Positions 1,363-10,683 are shown, numbered from the stretch's first letter. The stretch: 11,244 bases of DNA from Myxococcales bacterium (GCA_037441385.1 JBBISH010000167.1:1-11244); one strand, 5' to 3'. The notes: generated by a model from the sequence alone, not told the origin. Numbers and translations: made by a program.

Positions 1363-2007
1363 ATGCGACGCTGGCACGTCTTGTTGATGCGTTGTGGCAT
1401 GGGCGCGGTTCTGGCCGGGATCTCTGGGTGCGGGAGCAGTGGTGGCGGGCCGGCGCCCAGCTTGATTGGCGCCAGTTGCACCACCGCCGAGCGCGCTGCG
1501 GCCGCGCGCATGTGCTACGGCAAACAAGTTCTTGTGTGCACAGTGGACGGCAGCGCGGCCGACGCGAAGAGTACGGCCACAAGCGGAGGCGGCGGCATGA
1601 CGCCCGGACCACCGCCGACGTGGCAACTCGAAGCGGACTGCGCAAACCAGAGCGAGATCTGCCAAAACGGCGAGTGCATGGCCCAAGGCAGCAACCCGCT
1701 GCAGGGGTATACCTCGGGCACGTGGACGGGCGCGTGCCACGCCACCCAACTGGGCGGCTCGTTCCACTGTTCCATCGCAGGCGACAGCACGCTCGCGGGC
1801 CAGGTCACCGGCCAGCTCACTTCGCAGTCCGGCGGCTCCACGACATTCAGCCTGAGCGGCGCGCTCGCGGGCGATGGCACCGCAACCGCTACCAGCGCCG
1901 GCCCCTGTACGTGGTCAGGGAGTTTCGCTGCCGCGGGCGGCAGGCTGGTCGGCAGCGGCGACTACAGCTGCCCGGATGGCTGCGCCGGCACCTGGAGCAC
2001 GTTCTGA
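1363..2007 (+). CDS. Putative lipoprotein, Cys/Gly-rich, with beta-rich C-terminal domain; function unknown
   Basis: ATG 1363 follows GGGAAAAGGA. The N-terminus MRRWHVLL...AVLAGISGC has a basic start, a hydrophobic stretch and a lipobox-like ISGC followed by a GSSGGG linker. Stop TGA 2005-2007. Start could be a later Met. Confidence 0.78.
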   Translation: MRRWHVLLMRCGMGAVLAGISGCGSSGGGPAPSLIGASCTTAERAAAARMCYGKQVLVCTVDGSAADAKSTATSGGGGMTPGPPPTWQLEADCANQSEICQNGECMAQGSNPLQGYTSGTWTGACHATQLGGSFHCSIAGDSTLAGQVTGQLTSQSGGSTTFSLSGALAGDGTATATSAGPCTWSGSFAAAGGRLVGSGDYSCPDGCAGTWSTF

Positions 2008-2013
2008 TCCGAA

Positions 2014-2067
2014 CCTAGTACACCGAACCTCAAGTCCTTTCAGGGTTGCCGATGCCGGTGTACTAGG
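2014..2067. repeat. Perfect 12-bp inverted repeat with CTAG at both ends (mini-IS/MITE-like remnant or hairpin)
   Basis: CCTAGTACACCG (2014-2025) and its exact reverse complement CGGTGTACTAGG (2056-2067), 30-bp spacer. Confidence 0.7.
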
Positions 2068-2093
2068 CGGCGCTAGCCGCGCGCGGGGGTCGC

Positions 2094-2136
2094 AGGGGGC
2101 GGGGATCCCAGCGTGGGCGGCGCGCCCCCTTTCCTT
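2094..2136 (+). terminator. GC-rich stem-loop followed by a pyrimidine run; possible terminator or REP-like palindrome
   Basis: AGGGGGCG (2094-2101) pairs with CGCCCCCT (2123-2130), inner CCCA/TGGG pair, then TTCCTT. The U-tract is weak. Confidence 0.3.
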
Positions 2137-2702
2137 ACTCAATAGGCCAGTACTGCGAACCATTCGAGAGGCCTAATACCAATTCCGTCCGAATCGGATC
2201 GAAAACTCGGGCAATTCTTCGGGCTCGAACCGGGGTCCCCGCCTGATTCTCGCCAGTTGCAGAACGGGTCAGAAAAGCCGTACAGGCGCGAATCAGGTGG
2301 GGTGCGTATAACCCTGAACGTACTTTGGGTTTGTGGTGCTAGCTTCGGGCCCCACGAATTGACGGCGTTTTTTGAGCCAATTCAGACGGACTCCGCATGA
2401 CGCGCCCACCGGTTGCGTGGATCGCGGGCCGCGGGTCACACGGCTGGCAAGGCGTGCTGGGCGAGGCCGGTGGACCCGTGGGACCACGGGCAGATGCGGC
2501 AGAGGCTGGCGAATGGCGTCGGCATTTTCCCGGCGGCAACCAAAGGTGCGGCCGCCAGGGTGACTCCGTCTCTCTCTGGTGCGCCGCGTTGGGCAGCGCA
2601 ATGGGAGCGGCGTAGTGGCTTGCGCAAGTGCCAGTCGGCTCCACGCACCCAATACGCAGGTCTCGAAAAGAAGTTTCAGAAGAAGAATACTGCATGCGCA
2701 AC

Positions 2703-2743
2703 TTGGAAATATCCAATTGACTCGAATGGATAAGAGGTATACT
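2703..2743 (+). promoter_or_regulatory. Candidate sigma70-type promoter with adjacent inverted repeat
   Basis: TTGACT (2717-2722) and TATACT (2738-2743) in an AT-rich patch. The spacer is only 15 bp. TTGGA-N4-TCCAA (2703-2716) abuts the -35. Confidence 0.35.
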
Positions 2744-2810
2744 GTGGACCTCCGAGACCGGGGCGGCCGGCTTGACAGCACCGGCAAGCGAGGTCGGACG
2801 CCAAACGGCC

Positions 2811-2834
2811 ATATCTATGACTGAGCATAGATAT
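2811..2834. promoter_or_regulatory. Perfect palindromic operator candidate (lux/las-box geometry)
   Basis: ATATCTATG-actgag-CATAGATAT. The inner 20-mer ATCTATGACTGAGCATAGAT fits NNCT-N12-AGNN. It lies ~95 bp upstream of the ATG at 2930. Confidence 0.6.
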
Positions 2835-2929
2835 CTTGCGTAGTCGGACGCGACCAGTGTCGCACAAGAACCTGATTTTCGTTCGTTTCAAAGCATCTGT
2901 TCGCCAAATTCCGGGAAAGGAGAGCACCC

Positions 2930-3673
2930 ATGCAGATTCTCCGACTGACTGAACCCGCGCAACATGCAGAATTCAACGCCGCGTGCCGCCGCCTGATCGG
3001 CAGCGAGTACAGCAGGGACGACCTTGCGCGATGCGAGTGCTATGGCGCGCTCCGCGACGGACGACTCGTCGCCGGCTGGCTGCTCGATCCGGGCGCGCAC
3101 ATGTACCGCTCGCAACTTGCGGCTGCGGACCGAGAACGGGTCGACGCGAAATACGGTGCGGATGCCTGCGTGGGCGTTCACGGATGGTGGATGGATCCGG
3201 AGCTCAAAGGCGCCTTCATTCGGTTCTGGGTCACCACGTCCGTGGTCCGCACCATCCTAGCGTCGAGGCGCCCCTTCATGTTGGCCGGCTCCACCAACGA
3301 GAAGATCTTCGAGATCTACCGCGGTGCCCACCCCTGCGAGTGCTTTACGGCCCGCGTCACCTTCGCGGACGGGGAGAAATCGGTCCGCATCGCGATGGGC
3401 CGCATGCGCAACATGGGCCTGGGCTTCGCCGTGCACACCAGTCGGCGCTGGACGCGCTCGGCGCAGCGCTGGGCCATCGGTCGCCGGGACCGCGCGTCGG
3501 CGTGGATCGGCCACGCTGCAACGACCGTTGCCCACACGCCGATCGGGCGCAGCGCCGTCGCCCTGGGCAGTTCGCAGCCGGTCCATTGGTGGCGCGAAAT
3601 GGCGCATCTGATCCAGCCAGAGGTCGCCCATTCCGGGCACAGCGGTTCGGGCCGGGACGCAGGAGCCGAGTAG
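2930..3673 (+). CDS. Hypothetical protein with probable GNAT/acyltransferase fold
   Basis: RBS GGAAAGGAGAG before ATG 2930; TAG 3671-3673. GNAT-like order of elements: CYGALRDGRLVAGWLL beta-hairpin, VGVHGWWMDPELKG (motif A-like), helix, FMLAGSTNEKIFEIY (motif B-like). Confidence 0.75.
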   Translation: MQILRLTEPAQHAEFNAACRRLIGSEYSRDDLARCECYGALRDGRLVAGWLLDPGAHMYRSQLAAADRERVDAKYGADACVGVHGWWMDPELKGAFIRFWVTTSVVRTILASRRPFMLAGSTNEKIFEIYRGAHPCECFTARVTFADGEKSVRIAMGRMRNMGLGFAVHTSRRWTRSAQRWAIGRRDRASAWIGHAATTVAHTPIGRSAVALGSSQPVHWWREMAHLIQPEVAHSGHSGSGRDAGAE

Positions 3674-3682
3674 CCGCCGCAG

Positions 3683-3938
3683 TCGACCACCAAGTTGGGG
3701 GCCATTTTCTACCCATTGAAATTACGCAATTCTCAACCCCGCGTCAGCGATGCTGGCCCGCAGGGGTGGCGGCGCCAAGCCGGCGACGCCACCGCCGGGA
3801 GCAGAAACCTGCGGTCCCGCCAGCACTCCCTTCGACCGGCGGCCGCAGCGCGACGGGCCGGCGGCGGGGTTCAGAACTTGCCCCCCAACTTGCCAGAACT
3901 TGCCCACTACCTTCTTCCCGCCGGGCCGGGACGCCCAG
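3683..3938. repeat. Dispersed structured repeat, copy A (MITE/REP-like, imperfect terminal inverted repeats)
   Basis: Colinear with 6786-7012, including an identical 40-bp block (3827-3866 = 6924-6963). 3683-3712 is identical to 5409-5438. The left end CAAGTTGGGGGCCATTTTCT (3691-3710) matches the reverse complement of the right end 3873-3892 at 17/20 positions. Confidence 0.88.
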
Positions 3939-4271
3939 GTGGGTGTCACGCCAAACGGCAAGCACTTCAACCCAGGACCCCGTCACCACCCCGACCGCAA
4001 TCACACGATATCCGTCCAGAAGCTCCACGAACTCGCCGACCACCAGCCACGACGCGGGCGGCTCTGAAACCGGCACCCCGTGCACCATCGCCTGACGATT
4101 CGGAGCGTCGTAGTCGATGTTCACTAGCTGGACATCGCGGTAGAAAACCGCCTGCTCCTGCACGTAGCGCTGCCAGCGGATGCCGCAGCGAAGCCCTGCA
4201 AGTGGCGGCCGCCGACGTCCGCCGAACTCAGGCGGAATCCAGAGGCACTTCGTCCCTATCGCGCTCGGCAT
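3744..4271 (-). CDS. Stand-alone EF-Tu domain III-like protein (~99-aa domain; reading frame runs on into repeat copy A)
   Basis: ATG at 4271 is preceded by AAAGAGGGTGAG. LWIPPEFGGRRRPPLAGLRCGIRW...GEFVELLDGYRVIAVGVV parallels EF-Tu C-terminal [24 protein letters not shown]...GLRFAIREGGRTVGAGVV. The first in-frame stop is at 3744-3746, inside the repeat. Confidence 0.68.
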   Translation of the reverse strand: MPSAIGTKCLWIPPEFGGRRRPPLAGLRCGIRWQRYVQEQAVFYRDVQLVNIDYDAPNRQAMVHGVPVSEPPASWLVVGEFVELLDGYRVIAVGVVTGSWVEVLAVWRDTHLGVPARREEGSGQVLASWGASSEPRRRPVALRPPVEGSAGGTAGFCSRRWRRRLGAATPAGQHR

Positions 4272-4285
4272 CTCACCCTCTTTGT

Positions 4286-4711
4286 TCAGCTGCGCGCAGC
4301 GCCCGGTCCCACCTCGAAGGTCAAACAAGCCTGGTGACAGAGCGCCACCCGTTGGTGCACGCCCGGGTCGGGATGGCGGGCGGTGATGGTGTACGCGTAG
4401 CTCGTGTCCGCTGGCCTGCCGCACAAGAAGCACGTACCAGGCTGGGCCGGCGGCGAAGGGGACTCAACCGTGGGCAAGCCAACGTCCTGTGGAATGCCCG
4501 GTTCGGAAGCTCCTTTGCGGGCCATCGCGTGGATCCGAGCGAGGTCGGCATGGAGCGCCGCGAACTCGGCGCGCGAGTATCCCGTGCGGAGCGAACATTC
4601 GCCCTCGTCGAGGACGTTGGGGACCTCGAGCAGGAGTGCGAGAAGCATGTCGAGTTCGGCGTAGCGGACGCGGAGGTGCAGGTCCGATCCACTCCGATTT
4701 TCAAGTTGCAC
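4286..4711 (-). CDS. Hypothetical protein: N-terminal helical immunity-like module, Pro-rich linker, C-terminal CxxC...CHxxC Zn-finger-like module
   Basis: GTG 4711 is preceded by GGAGGG; TGA 4286-4288, 14 bp before the next start. Motifs ELDMLLALLLEVPNVLDEGECSLRTGYSRAEF and CFLCGRP...LCHQACL. Confidence 0.72.
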   Translation of the reverse strand: MQLENRSGSDLHLRVRYAELDMLLALLLEVPNVLDEGECSLRTGYSRAEFAALHADLARIHAMARKGASEPGIPQDVGLPTVESPSPPAQPGTCFLCGRPADTSYAYTITARHPDPGVHQRVALCHQACLTFEVGPGAARS

Positions 4712-4963
4712 GTTCCCTCCATCGCGACGACTTGCCGTCGCGCCCAGCAGTTCTGCAAGTCCTCGTCGGCTCTACTGGCATGGCTGCTCGGCCTCCGGCA
4801 CTCTGGCGCCAGTGAGACGAGCGAAGGCCAATGCTGCCCCTGGTGGCCCTCAGCTGCAATGCGGTTGTTGGCATGGCAGTGGCATGGCAAAGCCACGTGA
4901 GGCAGCAAGTGCCCGAATTAGTGGTGTTGTGCATCAGCGACGAGGCGACCTCGGCCGGGGCTG

Positions 4964-5320
4964 CTACGCTTGGTAGTCCTCGAACTCCCAATGGCCAATA
5001 CGAGCCAGTTTCTTGGCGATTTCCGCCCAATCCCGCCCGCTGCATCGGCCCACCGCCTTCTTGAGCTAGGCGTCCACCTGGGCGTAGTTGTACTCGTTCA
5101 CGATCAGCAGGTGTCTGCCACATTGCGGACCGCCATCCCGAATTCTGGCGGCCAGGCGCTTTGGCGTGATCAACTCCACGTCAAACGACTCCTCGCCAAT
5201 GGTGCCTTGGGGCCCTACAATGACCTGAATAATCAGGGCAAAGTCATCGTCACACGGAGGCCGAAAGTGTTCAAACGTGTCGACATCCGGCGAATGCAGC
5301 CGGCGAATCTCGGCGTTCAA
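4964..5320 (-). pseudogene. Immunity protein 8 (Imm8) family gene interrupted by an in-frame TAG at 5066-5068
   Basis: TTG 5320 follows AAGGAGGG. Reads NAEIRRLHSPDVD...FALIIQVIVGPQGTIGEESFDVELITPKRL...GRHLLIVNEYNY, then after the TAG continues in frame as LKKAVGRCSGRDWAEIAKKLARIGHWEFEDYQA* (stop 4964-4966), the typical Imm8 WEFEDY terminus. Confidence 0.85.
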
Positions 5321-5408
5321 GTCGCCCTCCTTGGCCACTCGGCCCACGGCTGCGTCAGGCACGCAGTCTAGCCCCGGATCGTCCAGGAGGGTACCGGGGC
5401 GGACGCGT

Positions 5409-5587
5409 TCGACCACCAAGTTGGGGGCCATTTTCTACTAGGGCGAAATCGCCCAGATCGACACGGCGCGCCTGAGCCGGGAGCAGCGCGAGCGGCTGCG
5501 GACGTCGCTGGCCACGCTGGAGCAGCAGGTGCAGGAGCTGCGGGCGGTGGTGGGGTAGGTGGGGTTCAGGACTTGCCCCCCAATTTG
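5409..5587. mobile_element. Repeat copy B: both ends of the element bracketing a 38-codon gene 3' fragment
   Basis: 5409-5438 is identical to 3683-3712 (30/30). 5561-5587 GGGGTTCAGGACTTGCCCCCCAATTTG matches 3866-3892 at 25/27. The interior is unrelated to copies A and C. Confidence 0.7.
5442..5558 (+). pseudogene. Orphan 3' gene fragment (helical C-terminus, no start codon)
   Basis: Translates as GEIAQIDTARLSREQRERLRTSLATLEQQVQELRAVVG*. 37 of 38 codons end in G/C. It is preceded in frame by TAG (5439-5441) at the junction with the element's left end. Confidence 0.55.
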
Positions 5588-5769
5588 ACTTTCACGGCGG
5601 GGATGGCGAAGCGGGCCGCGTGTGCATGCAGCCCGTCGATGCCTGTCGGCAAGCAAGCACACAGGTTGCTGCCAGGCCTCAAGCGTCGCCACACGCGGCA
5701 GTGATTCCGGCTTCGAAAAAATAGTCGCAGCCCCGTAGATCGAACTCTGGCCTGATGCGTCCAAGCGGA

Positions 5770-6753
5770 ATGCGCTTTGCCACGCTCGCCTTTCTGCTGT
5801 GCCCGCTGCTGCTTGCCCCGGCCCTGGCGGTCGCGGCGCCGCGGCCCAGCCCCAGCCAGGTAGAGGCCCGCAACGCCGAGTTGGTGCAGGCCATCGCCGC
5901 CCAGCCCGGCGAGCCGGCGTGGCGCTACATCGTCATCCATCACACAGCGTCGGAGCACGACTCACTGCGCGGCATCAGCGCCGGCCACGCCAAGCGCTTC
6001 CGGGATCCGCTGGGCATCCAGTACCACTTCCTGATTGGCAACGGCAACTCTGCGCCGGATGGGGCGATTCAACTCGCGCGCTGGCCGCATCGCCAGTTGT
6101 CGATCCATGTGGTGCACCCCGAGCGCGCCCCGACGGCCATCACCATCTCGCTGCAGGGCAACCTACACGAGCGCGTGCCCTCGCCCGCACAGATGCTGGC
6201 GGTCGAGACCCTGGTGCGCCACCTCATGGCGTTGTACGGCATCGACGCTGACCGGCTGTCGTCCAACACCAACGTCGACGGCACCTTTACCGTATGCCCA
6301 GGCAAGTACTTCCCCTTCGATCGCCTGGTGTGGCGATTGCGGCACAAGCAGAGCGCCAGCCTGCCCGATTGGCAGACGCCCCTGGCCGCCGTGCCCATGG
6401 ATGGACCGTGGCCCGACCTGCCCAGCGCGCGCGAGGCATTGCGATGGGACCGACCTTGCCGCGAGCCGATCCCGCCAGGCCCGCTGGTCGAGTTGAGCGT
6501 GTTGCCAGGGCGCGAGCAGCCGCGCGCGGCGGTGCTGGCGATCGCGGGGGGCCGCGGCTGTACGCCGATCTCGCGGCGCTTTCTGGGTCTGCAGACGCCG
6601 CAGGGCTGGTACCTGCGTGAACTGAACGGCTATCGGGTGTCGCGACTCAAACGCCAGGGCGGCCGTGTGCTGGTCGCCGACGAGCGCGGACCGATGCAAC
6701 GCTGCCGTGTGTCTGTGGATGGGCCGCCGCTGTGTGCGCTGGTGGCGCCGTAG
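5770..6753 (+). CDS. Secreted N-acetylmuramoyl-L-alanine amidase (Amidase_2/PGRP) family protein with C-terminal extension; possibly non-catalytic
   Basis: Signal peptide MRFATLAFLLCPLLLAPALAVA. Motifs WRYIVIHHTAS, GIQYHFLIGNG, ITISLQGN, PSPAQM, TVCPGKYFP. Alternative start ATG 5755; TAG 6751-6753. Confidence 0.88.
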   Translation: MRFATLAFLLCPLLLAPALAVAAPRPSPSQVEARNAELVQAIAAQPGEPAWRYIVIHHTASEHDSLRGISAGHAKRFRDPLGIQYHFLIGNGNSAPDGAIQLARWPHRQLSIHVVHPERAPTAITISLQGNLHERVPSPAQMLAVETLVRHLMALYGIDADRLSSNTNVDGTFTVCPGKYFPFDRLVWRLRHKQSASLPDWQTPLAAVPMDGPWPDLPSAREALRWDRPCREPIPPGPLVELSVLPGREQPRAAVLAIAGGRGCTPISRRFLGLQTPQGWYLRELNGYRVSRLKRQGGRVLVADERGPMQRCRVSVDGPPLCALVAP

Positions 6754-6785
6754 CAGGCCACGGTTGGCTGGCGGACCGGACCGGG

Positions 6786-7012
6786 AAGTTGGGGGGGCAT
6801 TTTCTACCCCTTGAAATTACGACATTCTTGACCCCGCGTCAGCGATGCCGGCCCCGCAGGGGTGGCGGCGCCGGGTCAGGCGTCGCCACCGCCGGGAGCA
6901 CGAGCCCAGGGTCCCGCCGGAGTTCCCTTCGACCGGCGGCCGCAGCGCGACGGGCCGGCGGCGAAGTGCAGCACTTGCCCGCTTCTCAAGTCCGCCGGAC
7001 CGGGACGCCCAG
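6786..7012. repeat. Dispersed structured repeat, copy C
   Basis: Aligns with 3692-3938 along its length. Stems are retained and loops diverged. The right inverted end is degenerate. Confidence 0.88.
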
Positions 7013-7263
7013 AACCTGCTGCCTGACACGCTGCACCCTCGTGTCATGTCGTCGACATAGCTACGGAATGGGCGGAACTTCGGCCGCCGCGCCCGGCCGC
7101 GCTGCCGCCGCCAACCGCTACCTCGCTGGCGGGACCACCCCGGTTTGACTCCAACCGCCGCGCCCCCTACGCTTGCAGAACCAAAGGCGGGCACCGGCGG
7201 CTGGGGAGCGCGGCCGGGCTGCGCGACAGCGGCACGCGTGCCGGCGACGAGGGAGAGTACACG

Positions 7264-9417
7264 ATGAACATTCAGCAAACATGGCGCCACGCGCTGCTCG
7301 GTTTGGCCGCGACGGCGGGCGCGCTAGCCGCAGCCCCGGCCACGGCGGCGATGCCCCTGACCGCAACGATCGAGGGCGTGCTGCAGTCCTCTGGCGGCGG
7401 GCCCGCCGCAGACGGCAACTACGGCGTTACCTTCGCCCTCTACGCCAGCGAAACTGGCGGCACCGCCATCTGGAGCGAGGGACCGGTACAAGTCGTCGCC
7501 AAGGGCGGGCTCTTCACCGCGGTCCTGGGCAGCAAGACGCCGCTCTCGCCCGCGGCGCTCTCGCAGAGCAATGCGTGGTTCGGCGTGCAGGTCGGCAGCG
7601 ACCCCGAGCTGGCGCGGCGGCCGGTGGGCGCAAGCCTGTACGCCCTGCGCGCAGCCGTGGCCGAGGCGCTGGAGTGCTCGGGCTGCATCAAAGCCGGTGC
7701 ACTCGACGCGGCGGTCCTGCAACCCTATGCCAAGTCGAGTGATCTGTCGGCCTACGCCAAGACTGCCGACCTGGGAGTCTACGCCAAGACCGGCGATTTG
7801 GGGGTGTATGCCAAGGTCGCAGATCTGGCGGCCTACGCCAAGGCGACCGATCTGGGCGCCTACGCCAAGCTCACCGACCTGTCCGACTACGTCAAAGCCG
7901 CCTCGCTCGCCAAGGTGGCGGGCACCGGCGACTACGCCGACCTGAAGAACACGCCCGCGCTGGCCAAGGTGGCGACCAGCGGCGACTTCGCCGACCTCAA
8001 GAACGCACCGACCGCCCCAGCGGTGGGCAAGCTGTGCGGCACTGGCCTGTTCCTCAAGGGCTTCAACGGCGACGGCAGCGTCAGCTGCAGCGCAATCGCC
8101 CCGGCCGACCTGCCGCCCGACGGCCTCGCCGCCGTGTCGAACGGCCTCGTCAGCAACCAGTTCGTCGACTCGCAGGCCGGCACGACCGACGTCCCCATCC
8201 CCGACGGTCTGGGCGCCGGCAAGTCCGACTCGCTGACCTTCCCTGACATCGGCCTGGCGCAAAAACTCTGGATTACCATGAGCATCGCCAACTCGGACCT
8301 CTCCGGTGTCAAGGTGGAGCTCTACGCTCCCGGACTGTCGACGCCCTACATCCTCTACGACGGCGGCAAGACCGGCACTGCCCTGACCGCGTCGTTCAAC
8401 GACACGACGGCCATCGTGTCCGGCGACCTGAACAAGGATTGGATCGGCAAGAACATCAAGGGCATCTGGTCCATCACGGTCAAGGACGTCAAGGTCGGCG
8501 GCGGCTCGGGCGGCTTCGACGGCAAATTCAACTGGGTCGTCAACATTCAGACCTTGTCGAGCAAGAAAGTGCAGGTCAAAGGCAACCTCTTGGTCGACGG
8601 CAAGATTTTCGGCACCGGCGTCTGCGGCAACGGCGTGGTCGAAACGGGCGAAGACTGCGACGACGGCAATCTGGTCGACGGCGACGGCTGCTCCAGCCAA
8701 TGCTCCGCCGCCACGGCAGAAAAGACCTGCGCCGCCATCCTGGCCAAGAACGCCGCCGCCAAGTCCGGCGAGTACACCATCGACCTCGACGGCGCCGGCC
8801 CGTGGGCGCCCCGCGAAGTCTTCTGCGACATGAGCACCAGCGGCGGCGGCTGGACCCGCTTCCTGCTCCACCAAGATCCCTTTGGCACCAAGCGCTTGGG
8901 CGTCGACGCCTGGAACGATGCCATCGCGATGGCGGCGGCCGGCGGCATCAAGCAGTGGCTCATCAAGACCTACACCAACCCGGCAGAGAGCAGCGGCAGC
9001 GGCGCCAAGCCGTTCAATGCGTTCATCTTGAACCTAAACGCATCGGCGCAAGGCGTCGGTTTTACGGGCTTTACTCACGCCACCAGCTTGGCCTACGACG
9101 CTCACCGCTGGAGCGGCACCGGCCGCGTCGACAGCGCCACCCTCCTGCCGGGCTCGAACTGCACGGCCTGGAGCAGCAGCTACAACAACGGCACCTTCCT
9201 GTGGGGCGAGCACCGCTGGAGCACCAACTACTCGCTTGGTTTCATGTGGTTCAGCTACTGCGGCGCCCCGGCGGGCTACCACATGCTCATCGTCAACCAC
9301 GACTACGACTACGGCGCCGCGGGCCGCTTCCAGACCCTCATCGGCACCAACAACAACCCCGGCGGGCCCACCGGCTACGACGAGGATGGCGGCACCTACG
9401 AGTTCTTCTTCAAGTAG
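7264..9417 (+). CDS. Large secreted mosaic protein: signal peptide, N-terminal beta domain, tail-fibre-like repeats, proprotein-convertase P-like domain, Myxococcus Cys-rich repeat, fibrinogen-like (FCDM...GGGWT) domain
   Basis: RBS GAGGGAGAG and an Ala-rich signal peptide. Motifs VTFALYASETGGTAIWSE...GLFTAVLG, DLxxYAK repeats, PIPDG...VKVELYAPG...GIWSITVKD, CGNGVVETGEDCDDGNLVDGDGCSSQC, KTCAAIL...SGEYTIDLDG...VFCDMSTSGGGWT. TAG 9415-9417. Confidence 0.93.
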   Translation: MNIQQTWRHALLGLAATAGALAAAPATAAMPLTATIEGVLQSSGGGPAADGNYGVTFALYASETGGTAIWSEGPVQVVAKGGLFTAVLGSKTPLSPAALSQSNAWFGVQVGSDPELARRPVGASLYALRAAVAEALECSGCIKAGALDAAVLQPYAKSSDLSAYAKTADLGVYAKTGDLGVYAKVADLAAYAKATDLGAYAKLTDLSDYVKAASLAKVAGTGDYADLKNTPALAKVATSGDFADLKNAPTAPAVGKLCGTGLFLKGFNGDGSVSCSAIAPADLPPDGLAAVSNGLVSNQFVDSQAGTTDVPIPDGLGAGKSDSLTFPDIGLAQKLWITMSIANSDLSGVKVELYAPGLSTPYILYDGGKTGTALTASFNDTTAIVSGDLNKDWIGKNIKGIWSITVKDVKVGGGSGGFDGKFNWVVNIQTLSSKKVQVKGNLLVDGKIFGTGVCGNGVVETGEDCDDGNLVDGDGCSSQCSAATAEKTCAAILAKNAAAKSGEYTIDLDGAGPWAPREVFCDMSTSGGGWTRFLLHQDPFGTKRLGVDAWNDAIAMAAAGGIKQWLIKTYTNPAESSGSGAKPFNAFILNLNASAQGVGFTGFTHATSLAYDAHRWSGTGRVDSATLLPGSNCTAWSSSYNNGTFLWGEHRWSTNYSLGFMWFSYCGAPAGYHMLIVNHDYDYGAAGRFQTLIGTNNNPGGPTGYDEDGGTYEFFFK
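7714..8010 (+). repeat. Intragenic tandem repeats: 7 x 27 bp (DLxxYAKxx) then 2 x 54 bp (xLAKVAxxGDxADLKNxP)
   Basis: 27-bp units start at 7714, 7741, 7768, 7795, 7822, 7849, 7876; 54-bp units at 7903 and 7957. Units are in frame and degenerate at the DNA level. Confidence 0.88.
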
Positions 9418-9426
9418 CCGCGTATA

Positions 9427-10683
9427 CTACCTTTTGCGCCGTTCCAGCTCGCGCAGAATCGCCAGCGGATCGTCGTCGTCATCGCCAATTTCCAGGACGC
9501 TGGCCGCCTCGCGCACCTTGGGTGGCTCTACCCGCCGCGGCGCAGGCACGGCCGCGGGCTGGCGCACCACTTGCACGGCCTCCTCAGCATCCTCAACGCC
9601 ATACTGCGGCTCTGCGGGCCGAGTGGGGCGGTCCAGCGGCGGCGTCCGCGGCAGCTCGGGCACCGGCTCGGCGTCGCGCTCGCTGGGCACGTAGAAGTCG
9701 CTGCGGCGGTCCAGCCACTCGCGGTAGCGGCCAAAAGTCCAGCAGCCGTCCTGCCCACCGGTCTCCAGCACGGTCTGCAGCTTGCTCCACTGGGCGGCCC
9801 GAATGGCACTGCGCGCCGCGGTAGTGCCAGTCAGAATCTCCAGTTCGGGCACCAGCCGGTCCGTAGCGGTGCGGTACGTCAAGCGCTGACACACCACGGC
9901 GACCAGGGCGTCGGCCAACTGCGCCGCCACGTTGCTCTGCGCCTCCGGCGCGAACGCGTTGACGATGCGGGCCAGCGCCTCGGCCGAGGTCGCCGAATGC
10001 AGCGTGGCAAACACCAGGTGACCGGTCTCGGCCGCCGCCAAAGTCAGGCGCATCGTCTCGGGGTCGCGCATCTCGCCCACCACCAGCACGTCGGGATCCT
10101 GGCGCAGGGCATCCAGCAGGGCCTGCTCGAAGCTGGGCGTATCGCGCCCCACTTCACGCTGGCGGATCAACGACTTGCGCGGCGCAATCGCGTACTCGAT
10201 CGGACTCTCGAGCGCGATGATGTGACGGGTCTCGTTCAAGTTGATCTCTTGGATCAGCGCCGCCAGCGTGGTCGACTTGCCCGAGCCGGTCGCGCCCGAC
10301 ACCAGAACCAACCCGTGCTGGAACTGCACCAGGCGTGCCAAGTCGGGATGAAGATTCAACTTGCGCAGGTTCGCCTGGAAGGCCGTGAGCAGCCGCACCG
10401 CCAGGCCTACGCCGCGGGCCGTGCGGACCACGTTGATACGGCAGCGCACTCCGCCCAGCGTCCGCGACAAGTCGTACGACTGCCGCCGCCGGAAGTCGTT
10501 CCACTGATCGTCGCTCAGCAGTTCGCGAGCCGCCCGCTGCAGCGCCGCCGCCGGCACCGGCTCGCCGACCAGACGCAACTGGCCGCGAACGCGCAGCGCC
10601 ACGGGCAACCCCGGTTCCAGGTGCAGATCGCTCGCACCCGCCGCGATGGCCGGTTGTAGCCACTGGCCAAGGGCCTCTTGCAT
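9427..10683 (-). CDS. pilT: PilT/PilU family type IV pilus retraction ATPase
   Basis: ASDLHL N-domain, Walker A GATGSGKST, ESPIEY (Asp box), QREVGRDT, ALRQDPDVLVVGEMRD (Walker B), AAETGHLVFATLH (His box). RBS GGGAGGA before ATG 10683. Which PilT paralogue it is cannot be decided here. Confidence 0.93.
   Translation of the reverse strand: MQEALGQWLQPAIAAGASDLHLEPGLPVALRVRGQLRLVGEPVPAAALQRAARELLSDDQWNDFRRRQSYDLSRTLGGVRCRINVVRTARGVGLAVRLLTAFQANLRKLNLHPDLARLVQFQHGLVLVSGATGSGKSTTLAALIQEINLNETRHIIALESPIEYAIAPRKSLIRQREVGRDTPSFEQALLDALRQDPDVLVVGEMRDPETMRLTLAAAETGHLVFATLHSATSAEALARIVNAFAPEAQSNVAAQLADALVAVVCQRLTYRTATDRLVPELEILTGTTAARSAIRAAQWSKLQTVLETGGQDGCWTFGRYREWLDRRSDFYVPSERDAEPVPELPRTPPLDRPTRPAEPQYGVEDAEEAVQVVRQPAAVPAPRRVEPPKVREAASVLEIGDDDDDPLAILRELERRKR

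Follow-up and report, generated by a model that had tools for sequence, protein, structure and literature searches.

We analyzed an 11,244-nt stretch of DNA from a myxobacteria-like bacterium (Myxococcales bacterium, GCA_037441385.1, JBBISH010000167.1:1-11244), a whole metagenomic contig with a GC content of 67% that is called the window below. Three related repeats, A, B and C, lie in its central part, all within 3.3 kb and in one orientation. Three minus-strand genes separate A from B (a stand-alone EF-Tu domain III-like gene, an orphan gene and a gene of the Imm8 immunity family), one amidase gene separates B from C, and a gene for a 717-aa fibrinogen-like secreted protein follows C. The repeats look like traces of mobile or recombining DNA. 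Judging from their anatomy, we tentatively favor a reading in which all three belong to one small mobile repeat that is non-coding and non-autonomous, of the miniature inverted-repeat transposable element (MITE) or mobile-insertion-cassette type. The repeats and one flanking feature are located as follows.

3683..3938, plus strand: repeat unit A, with a 30-mer at 3683-3712, the core CATTTTCTAC at 3703-3712 and a GC-rich hairpin interior.
5409..5587, plus strand: repeat B, with the 30-mer at 5409-5438, the core at 5429-5438, a gene relic at 5442-5558 and the right end at 5561-5587.
6776..7012, plus strand: repeat unit C, with direct repeats at 6776-6786 and 6995-7005, the core at 6798-6807 and a degenerate right inverted repeat.
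3648..3660, plus strand: left 13-nt direct repeat of A, overlapping the last codons of the open reading frame (ORF) at 2930-3673.

The three repeats are real and non-random. The 21-mer AAGTTGGGGGSCATTTTCTAC occurs on the plus strand at 3692-3712 (A, no mismatches), 5418-5438 (B, none) and 6787-6807 (C, three mismatches, because C has one extra G), and none of 200 shuffles gave three matches. The 30-mer at 3683-3712 in A is 100% identical to 5409-5438 in B, and its first 9 nt are absent from C. At the other end, the motif GTTCAGRACTTGCCCCCCAA was found only at 3869-3888 (A) and 5564-5583 (B), two matches that no shuffle reproduced (0/200). The right ends of A and B share 22 of 23 nt, and between the two ends A and B have no similarity. 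Alignment of A with C gives 85.7% identity over 189 columns and, after an indel-rich stretch, a further block of 21 nt at 95% identity (3918-3938 versus 6992-7012). This block extends the A/C unit to 3938 and 7012, past the ends proposed in an earlier reading made from the DNA alone (the sequence-only reading). Indels between A and C disrupt all reading frames, and unit sizes are 179-287 nt over all copies (230-287 nt for A and C counting their direct repeats). A begins 10 nt after the stop of ORF 2930-3673, and C begins 33 nt after the stop of the amidase ORF at 5755-6753. Three related sites in one orientation, a 30-mer identical in A and B and both of these distances had been reported by the sequence-only reading, and all of this was reproduced.

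The repeats have terminal inverted repeats of 14-20 nt, formed by CAAGTTGGGGG(G)CA and its complement. In A they span 20 nt (3691-3710 and 3873-3892, 85% complementary), or about 30 nt if a 24-nt gap is allowed, and 174 nt separate the 14-mers at 3691-3704 and 3879-3892. In B they span 14 nt (5417-5430 and 5574-5587, 86% complementary) and enclose 143 nt. A is predicted to fold into a single whole-length hairpin on the plus strand (-106.9 kcal/mol, z -4.17, 0/200 shuffles as stable), with a z of -3.93 on the minus strand. B folded no better than its shuffles, and neither did C (z -0.48, 60/200 as stable), so the structure is not maintained between copies. C retains the left end and the interior of A, and its right inverted repeat is degenerate; it is an older, decayed copy of A. 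The right end of A contains a 22-nt tandem duplication (3872-3913) in which CAGAACTTGCCC... is present twice; a related motif, AACTTGCC, recurs with an 11-nt period. Beside the left end lies an AT-rich dyad, ATTTTC-N8-GAAAT, which contains the 10-mer CATTTTCTAC.

The interior of B differs in kind. Positions 5442-5558 hold 38 codons with a third-position GC content (GC3) of 0.90-0.96, no start codon and an in-frame TAG before them, and end 2 nt before the right-end motif; this interior is what remains of the 3' end of a gene. A homology search with the relic, in which the stop was read through as X, returned 19 candidates, none at E<=0.1. Its only Pfam match, to GvpK, is sub-threshold (E 1.8e-04, 22 bits, against a cut-off of 25 bits).

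A and C are also flanked by direct repeats. Around A these are perfect over 13 nt (CGGGCCGGGACGC, 3648-3660 and 3922-3934), a score reached by 1 of 2000 flank shuffles, and around C they are perfect over 11 nt (CCGGACCGGGA, 6776-6786 and 6995-7005; 4 of 2000). B has no flanking direct repeats, as 1978 of 2000 shuffles scored as well. The near-palindromic consensus CGGRCCGGGAC has exactly four matches in the window at 0-1 mismatch, all of them flanking A and C; at up to two mismatches it is not enriched (18 matches versus 19.9 expected). Rather than bare sites, A and C are palindromic units of 210-270 nt that do not code for protein, have terminal inverted repeats and lie between direct repeats of 11-13 nt, an anatomy that is MITE-like. 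Ends of the Tn3 type were considered, as the ends start with GGGG, and were ruled out: every copy has the same 5 nt, AAGTT, outside the G-run, and these are therefore not a target duplication.

Copies outside the window were found by a scan for the exact 21-mer AAGTTGGGGGSCATTTTCTAC in one genome per species, covering 185,579 species. The sole match was a groundwater metagenome-assembled genome (MAG) of a 'Deltaproteobacteria bacterium', which carries the 21-mer at two loci, L001 and L002, with the left end conserved over 22-36 nt at both. The only gene that these loci have in common with the window encodes a homologue of the 717-aa protein; the L001 homologue is 66.7% identical to it over 402 aa, and the L002 homologue 42.9% identical over 517 aa. 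Both 21-mer copies lie 1.4-1.5 kb upstream of this homologue in the same orientation, with one opposite-strand gene between, and the two intervening genes are mutually unrelated (E 0.49). All loci, in the window and in the MAG, are upstream of a fibrinogen-like gene of the 717-aa family. L002 has a second, partial copy (L002b) just upstream of its 717-like gene, which aligns locally to A (z 14). The core is thereby present in L002 as an 11-nt perfect direct repeat on both sides of a single 390-aa gene. L001 has no second core copy beyond its inserted gene, and a search for inverted partners of the MAG copies gave no further matches with fewer than two mismatches.

Comparison of the six copies, three from the window and three from the MAG, showed that the 10-mer CATTTTCTAC is invariant (6/6); five of the copies carry the left arm (C)AAGTTGGGGG(G), and four carry the right arm CC-N-TTGAAATTACG. 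Homology stops right after ...CTAC in B and L001 and starts just before the core in L002b, and the sequence that follows the site on its right is different in all five loci. The pattern ATTTTC-N7-9-GA(A/G)(A/T/C) occurs in all six copies, with spacers that differ beyond TAC. B keeps GAAAT at 1 nt from the expected spacing; this pentamer occurs seven times in the 11,244 nt, three of them within the sites. An nhmmer profile of the six copies detected no further copy in the window or the MAG loci, the six themselves matching by construction. The opposite-strand genes beside the motif in the MAG end 9-12 nt from the core (L002 3261-3263; L001 about 10031), and in L002 the last five codons and the stop of this gene lie within the right arm of the site, which mirrors the entry of the EF-Tu domain III-like gene into unit A. 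A good sigma-70-like promoter (TTGTGA, 17 nt, TACAAT) was seen by eye in L002 at about 1930-1965 on the minus strand, between the partial copy and the 717-like gene.

The genes around and between the repeats are listed below.

2930..3673, plus strand: lead for a GNAT/FeeM-like acetyltransferase, 247 aa (Atlas feature score 0.97, clusters including 'GNAT family N-acetyltransferase').
3744..4271, minus strand: stand-alone EF-Tu domain III-like gene, with the conserved domain at residues 5-98.
4286..4711, minus strand: orphan gene, 141 aa, with a GGAGG ribosome-binding site and a GTG start, 14 nt upstream of the EF-Tu domain III-like gene.
4964..5320, minus strand: Imm8 (PF15586), with a TTG start after AAGGAGG and an in-frame TAG at 5066-5068.
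5755..6753, plus strand: N-acetylmuramoyl-L-alanine amidase of the peptidoglycan recognition protein (PGRP) type, 332 aa (Pfam Amidase_2, E 5.6e-12).
7264..9417, plus strand: 717-aa fibrinogen-like secreted protein with 9-aa tandem repeats, a myxobacterial cysteine-rich repeat and a GGGWT domain (Pfam, NCBIfam).
9427..10683, minus strand: PilT/PilU-family type IV pilus ATPase (TIGR01420, 324.8 bits versus a cut-off of 319.1).

The EF-Tu domain III-like gene was placed by a full HMMER search, which found 79 representatives at E<=0.001 (17 at E<=1e-10), nearly all of 74-126 aa; a word-index search gave no relatives, and none of 30 aligned members matched a Pfam model. Its structure was modeled at a mean pLDDT (predicted local distance difference test) of 91.2, and the top Foldseek matches all contain EF-Tu (E from 4.7e-04, TMq up to 0.69). 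All homologues align to residues 1-120 of the query and none to its tail, and most of the aligned relatives terminate 2-12 residues past an AVGxI motif. The ORF extends 64 codons past the A/C homology boundary, and its stop is supplied from inside unit A. The matches in the Protein Data Bank include EF-Tu bound to CdiA toxin/immunity pairs (5i4q, 7vmc), and the gene shares a small operon with Imm8. From these matches, a role as a decoy or immunity factor against EF-Tu-dependent toxins is conceivable.

The orphan gene has no family match; among 5.8 billion proteins it matches only itself, and its best Atlas score was 0.79. No Pfam or NCBIfam match was found for ORF 2930-3673, which has a GC3 of 0.8-0.94. 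In Imm8 the Pfam match falls into two pieces, model positions 1-81 before the TAG (E 6.2e-17) and 85-113 after it (E 1.8e-08), and no single open frame holds a full-length match. By its in-frame stop, the only recognizable immunity gene is thus probably a pseudogene; GC dips to just 0.57-0.65 in this module. The amidase has an N-terminus that is hydrophobic and resembles a signal peptide, and its PHROGs matches are endolysin/amidase families (E 6.9e-05 and 0.001); it looks like an ordinary secreted cell-wall enzyme.

Domain scans covered 13 chosen ORFs of the window, 43 further window ORFs (all frames, 1874-7739) and 12 MAG ORFs. None of these encoded a recombinase or transposase domain, in agreement with the proposal that no enzyme is encoded nearby; the search spanned the 11.2-kb window and 17 kb of MAG context, about 28 kb in all, and a more distant gene is possible. 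A toxin domain was likewise found in none of the 13 chosen and 43 further window ORFs. PADLOC returned no matches for eight of nine proteins and only generic P-loop matches for the PilT-like ATPase. Rfam 15 had no matches at E<=1 across the whole window on both strands, and distant blastn of unit A against a plasmid and a phage collection gave no match in either. Retrons, diversity-generating retroelements and group II introns were considered and rejected, as the scanned ORFs held no reverse transcriptase and there was no Rfam match. A promoter and terminator scan of 2000-7400 called nothing at the repeats and one sigma-70-like site elsewhere in the 5.4 kb, and inspection of the motif by eye for sigma-54-like and extracytoplasmic function (ECF)-like boxes gave no convincing fit.

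These results bear on the sequence-only reading, which had described an array of orphan immunity and peptidoglycan-binding gene cassettes with no toxin gene, as a candidate defense system. Its EF-Tu III-like label was right, as the model and Foldseek results show, its amidase/PGRP call was borne out by the Amidase_2 match, and no toxin gene was present in any ORF scanned. The Imm8 gene was assigned to the correct family and is broken by its in-frame TAG. The description of the genes as tightly spaced fits the 14 nt between the orphan and the EF-Tu domain III-like gene but not the 252 nt between Imm8 and the orphan. Of the four genes that lie between sites, one is of an immunity family, and it carries the nonsense codon; PADLOC found nothing beyond the generic P-loop, and the array consists of only two modules. 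A dedicated defense cassette system is not supported.

Among the readings of the repeats themselves, the MITE-like one ranked first, with att-type recombination sites close behind. The repeats are small (<500 bp) and non-coding, though B holds a coding relic; A and B have terminal inverted repeats, and between these two copies the ends are kept and the interior is replaced. The absence of a transposase or recombinase from the scanned ORFs fits mobilization in trans. An enzyme encoded elsewhere would bind the ends and the dyad and move or recombine the units, and the flanking direct repeats would have arisen by duplication of a preferred target. Copies of the same orientation could have recombined with each other, the junction falling inside the shared core; this would give a mosaic in which A combines the left arm of B with the right arm of C, and it could also have placed unrelated accessory genes between copies. 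Such genes would not be cargo of a dedicated capture system; they would be passengers in a variable island undergoing decay. Signs of decay are the stop in Imm8, the stop that the EF-Tu domain III-like gene takes from A and the gene relic in B. Several observations weigh against a MITE-like origin, however. Three co-oriented copies in 3.3 kb are unusual for dispersed MITEs, and the nine identical nucleotides TCGACCACC that A and B share outside the inverted repeat are not predicted by independent insertions. The direct repeats of A sit about 30 nt from its inverted repeats instead of abutting them, and the use of the same direct-repeat sequence around A and C, with none at B, requires target specificity or duplication of an att core. 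Random transposition predicts something other than a 21-mer that occurs only twice in the MAG, both times upstream of 717-family genes and in the same orientation, and the MAG copies have no inverted partner. The break in homology just after CATTTTCTAC in B and L001, with L002b starting just before it, is more readily explained by a crossover site than by the end of a transposon. Att-type recombination or a conserved cis-site also fits better with the invariant core at which arms are exchanged, the chimeric look of A (left arm of B, right arm of C), the outside flank shared by A and B, the duplication of the core around a single gene in L002, the single orientation, the low copy number in the MAG and the strict linkage of the motif to one gene family.

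It is possible, and a little less probable in our judgment, that the ~30-bp region made up of the left arm, the core CATTTTCTAC and the right half-site GAAAT is an att-type site, acted on by a recombinase encoded elsewhere and probably of the tyrosine type, with serial integration of gene modules duplicating the core each time, as in elements that accumulate at dif or in ICE/CIME accretion; apart from the defense label, this is the idea of the sequence-only reading. This would account for an identical core with switching arms, as seen in the six copies, and for the match of A to B on the left (30/30) and, beyond a junction at the core, to C on the right (86-89%). The same holds for the retained GAAAT in the otherwise unrelated right side of B, for the L002 core repeat (11 nt perfect, about 35 nt of diverged extension) enclosing one 390-aa gene, for different right-side DNA in five of five loci including two unrelated MAG inserts, and for the single orientation of all sites; direct repeats of the same sequence at A and C fit att-core duplication. 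Yet no recombinase was found in the 11.2-kb window or the 17 kb of MAG context, the inverted right end of A and B and the 200-nt hairpin are left unexplained, and L001 lacks a second core past its inserted gene. The putative spacers differ (TACCCATT, TACTAGGGC, TACTGTGC), whereas sites that recombine with one another usually have an identical spacer of 6-8 nt as their overlap region; two direct-repeat systems (CATTTTCTAC and CGGRCCGGGAC) are unparsimonious, and there are six sites in total only. The proposal of the sequence-only reading that these are recombination or insertion sites is in part upheld by the invariant core, the switch of homology there, the separation of unrelated modules and the core pair around one gene in L002, patterns that recombination may have produced. 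A more elaborate version, which we consider unlikely, would make the ~30-bp dyad with CATTTTCTAC the attachment site of an undescribed Myxococcota-like gene-accretion system. Its recombinase would be encoded elsewhere, the system would be anchored upstream of fibrinogen-like surface-protein genes, the 170-250-nt hairpins would act in an attC-like manner, and the DNA moving in and out would consist of single genes or small operons (immunity-like, amidase, lipoproteins).

About equally unlikely is a cis-acting role, in which the left motif would be an operator, activator or similar site upstream of the 717-aa family and A and B would be local segmental duplicates without mobility. The motif does lie upstream of the gene in the same orientation wherever a family member is present, at three of three loci (window C, L001, L002), and its dyad symmetry is typical of a protein-binding site. 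Its 22-36 nt are identical or nearly so, compared with 73% for orthologous coding DNA; conservation beyond that of coding DNA suggests that the site is under selection. The motif nevertheless lies at anything from about 0.1 to 1.5 kb from the gene, with an opposite-strand gene intervening in both MAG loci, A lies between convergent genes where there is nothing to regulate, no sigma-70-like site was called at any copy, and the terminal inverted repeats, the flanking direct repeats and the B relic are not explained. The near-perfect 14-nt inverted repeats around 143 nt in B and 174 nt in A could also delimit invertible switches of ~145-175 nt, flipped by a recombinase encoded elsewhere and controlling surface or secreted protein genes, as B sits between the divergent Imm8 operon and amidase gene and C lies upstream of the secreted repeat protein. 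This is very improbable: no promoter-like site lies within any copy, A again has convergent genes on either side, an inverted partner is missing from C and from both MAG copies, and the B interior is a coding relic. Least probable of all is that the units encode a structured RNA, either a small RNA or a stabilizer or terminator in the 3' untranslated region of the repetitive extragenic palindromic (REP) or bacterial interspersed mosaic element (BIME) type. A does fold far better than shuffles on both strands, and A and C do start 10 and 33 nt past stops, but Rfam gave no match, no terminator-like site was called at the copies, and the part conserved in the MAG is the unstructured, AT-rich left part only.

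Comparison with known systems supports the statement that the sites are neither attC nor dif in layout. An attC site begins with the inverse core RYYYAAC and ends with the core GTTRRRY. Like integron cassettes, the window has repeats just past gene ends, hairpins, conserved ends with a variable center and unrelated genes, with an enzyme that would act in trans. However, the end motifs run GTTGGGG...CCCCAAC on either strand, the reverse of attC, the units measure 170-250 nt, the genes lie on both strands and there is no common promoter. No intI or attI was present, and no integrase domain was found in the 13 and 43 ORFs of the 11-kb contig, a distant gene being possible. The repeats share with the REP/REPIN elements of REP-associated tyrosine transposases (RAYTs) the extragenic palindromic doublets, long hairpins, a position usually just after genes and an enzyme encoded elsewhere; they differ in an apparently low copy number and in that REPINs have no flanking duplications. 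The window site is unlike the dif consensus, and the MAG has at least two loci as opposed to a single dif; the GC-skew profile shows no switch in the window, which is too short to judge dif placement. Mobile elements of the IMEX class integrate at dif via host XerCD, and pdif modules are also known, as described in PMC6744903, 10.64898/2026.06.12.731946 and 10.1101/2024.04.09.588662. The resemblance to these lies in the ~30-bp dyad with a central spacer, the enzyme encoded elsewhere and the same-orientation sites that serial integration leaves between modules.

The recombinase-associated acquired interbacterial defense (rAID-1) clusters of Bacteroidales are defined, in 10.1101/471110, by a 5' XerD-like recombinase gene, at least two co-directional downstream genes and low GC. 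The window resembles them in immunity-family content, repetitive intergenic sequence and locally lower GC, but it has no recombinase in the scanned ORFs, its genes lie on both strands and its sole Imm gene is broken, so it falls outside that definition. According to PMC4133298, MITEs derived from Tn3 (TIMEs) are small and non-coding, with terminal inverted repeats, short flanking direct repeats and no transposase, much like the repeats here; variants keep their ends around unrelated DNA, and two copies can mobilize the DNA between them. The window repeats differ from TIMEs in lacking the 38-bp Tn3-type inverted repeats and in having flanks of 11-13 nt with a fixed sequence instead of 5-6 nt at AT-rich targets. 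They also have no known parent transposon, and their copies are clustered and co-oriented.

On the basis of literature searches, the repeat is previously undescribed: a full-text search for the motif strings found none, and a search for miniature inverted-repeats in myxobacteria gave no relevant work, as judged from titles and the start of abstracts. If MITE-like, it would be an ordinary though undescribed repeat family, useful chiefly for marking a variable island in a myxobacteria-like lineage that is uncultured. Should the core instead be a recombination site used in trans, it would represent chromosomal cassette exchange outside the integron and Xer paradigms. In that case, the turnover of accessory surface and immunity genes would be directly testable in a phylum known for contact-dependent antagonism.

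Some further features of the window were observed. It encodes myxobacterial cysteine-rich repeat proteins with DUF4215 and EGF domains (ORF 1-1308) and with myxo_disulf_rpt (the 717-aa ORF), as assigned by Pfam and NCBIfam. Within the 717-aa gene, positions 7726-7914 hold tandem 27-nt (9-aa) repeats that amount to five overlapping 81-nt copies with 27-nt shifts, and a proprotein-convertase-P-like region of the protein is apparent in the L002 homologue. The PilT-like ATPase gene is convergent with the 717-aa gene and reaches to within 10 nt of the latter's stop, leaving almost no spacer. At 2040-2930, about 900 nt have a low GC content (0.50-0.61) and no codon periodicity, and none of 11 ORFs lying wholly or mostly inside had a Pfam match. 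This stretch begins, just after a lipoprotein gene, with 39-nt imperfect inverted repeats (2009-2047 and 2310-2348) that are 77% complementary.

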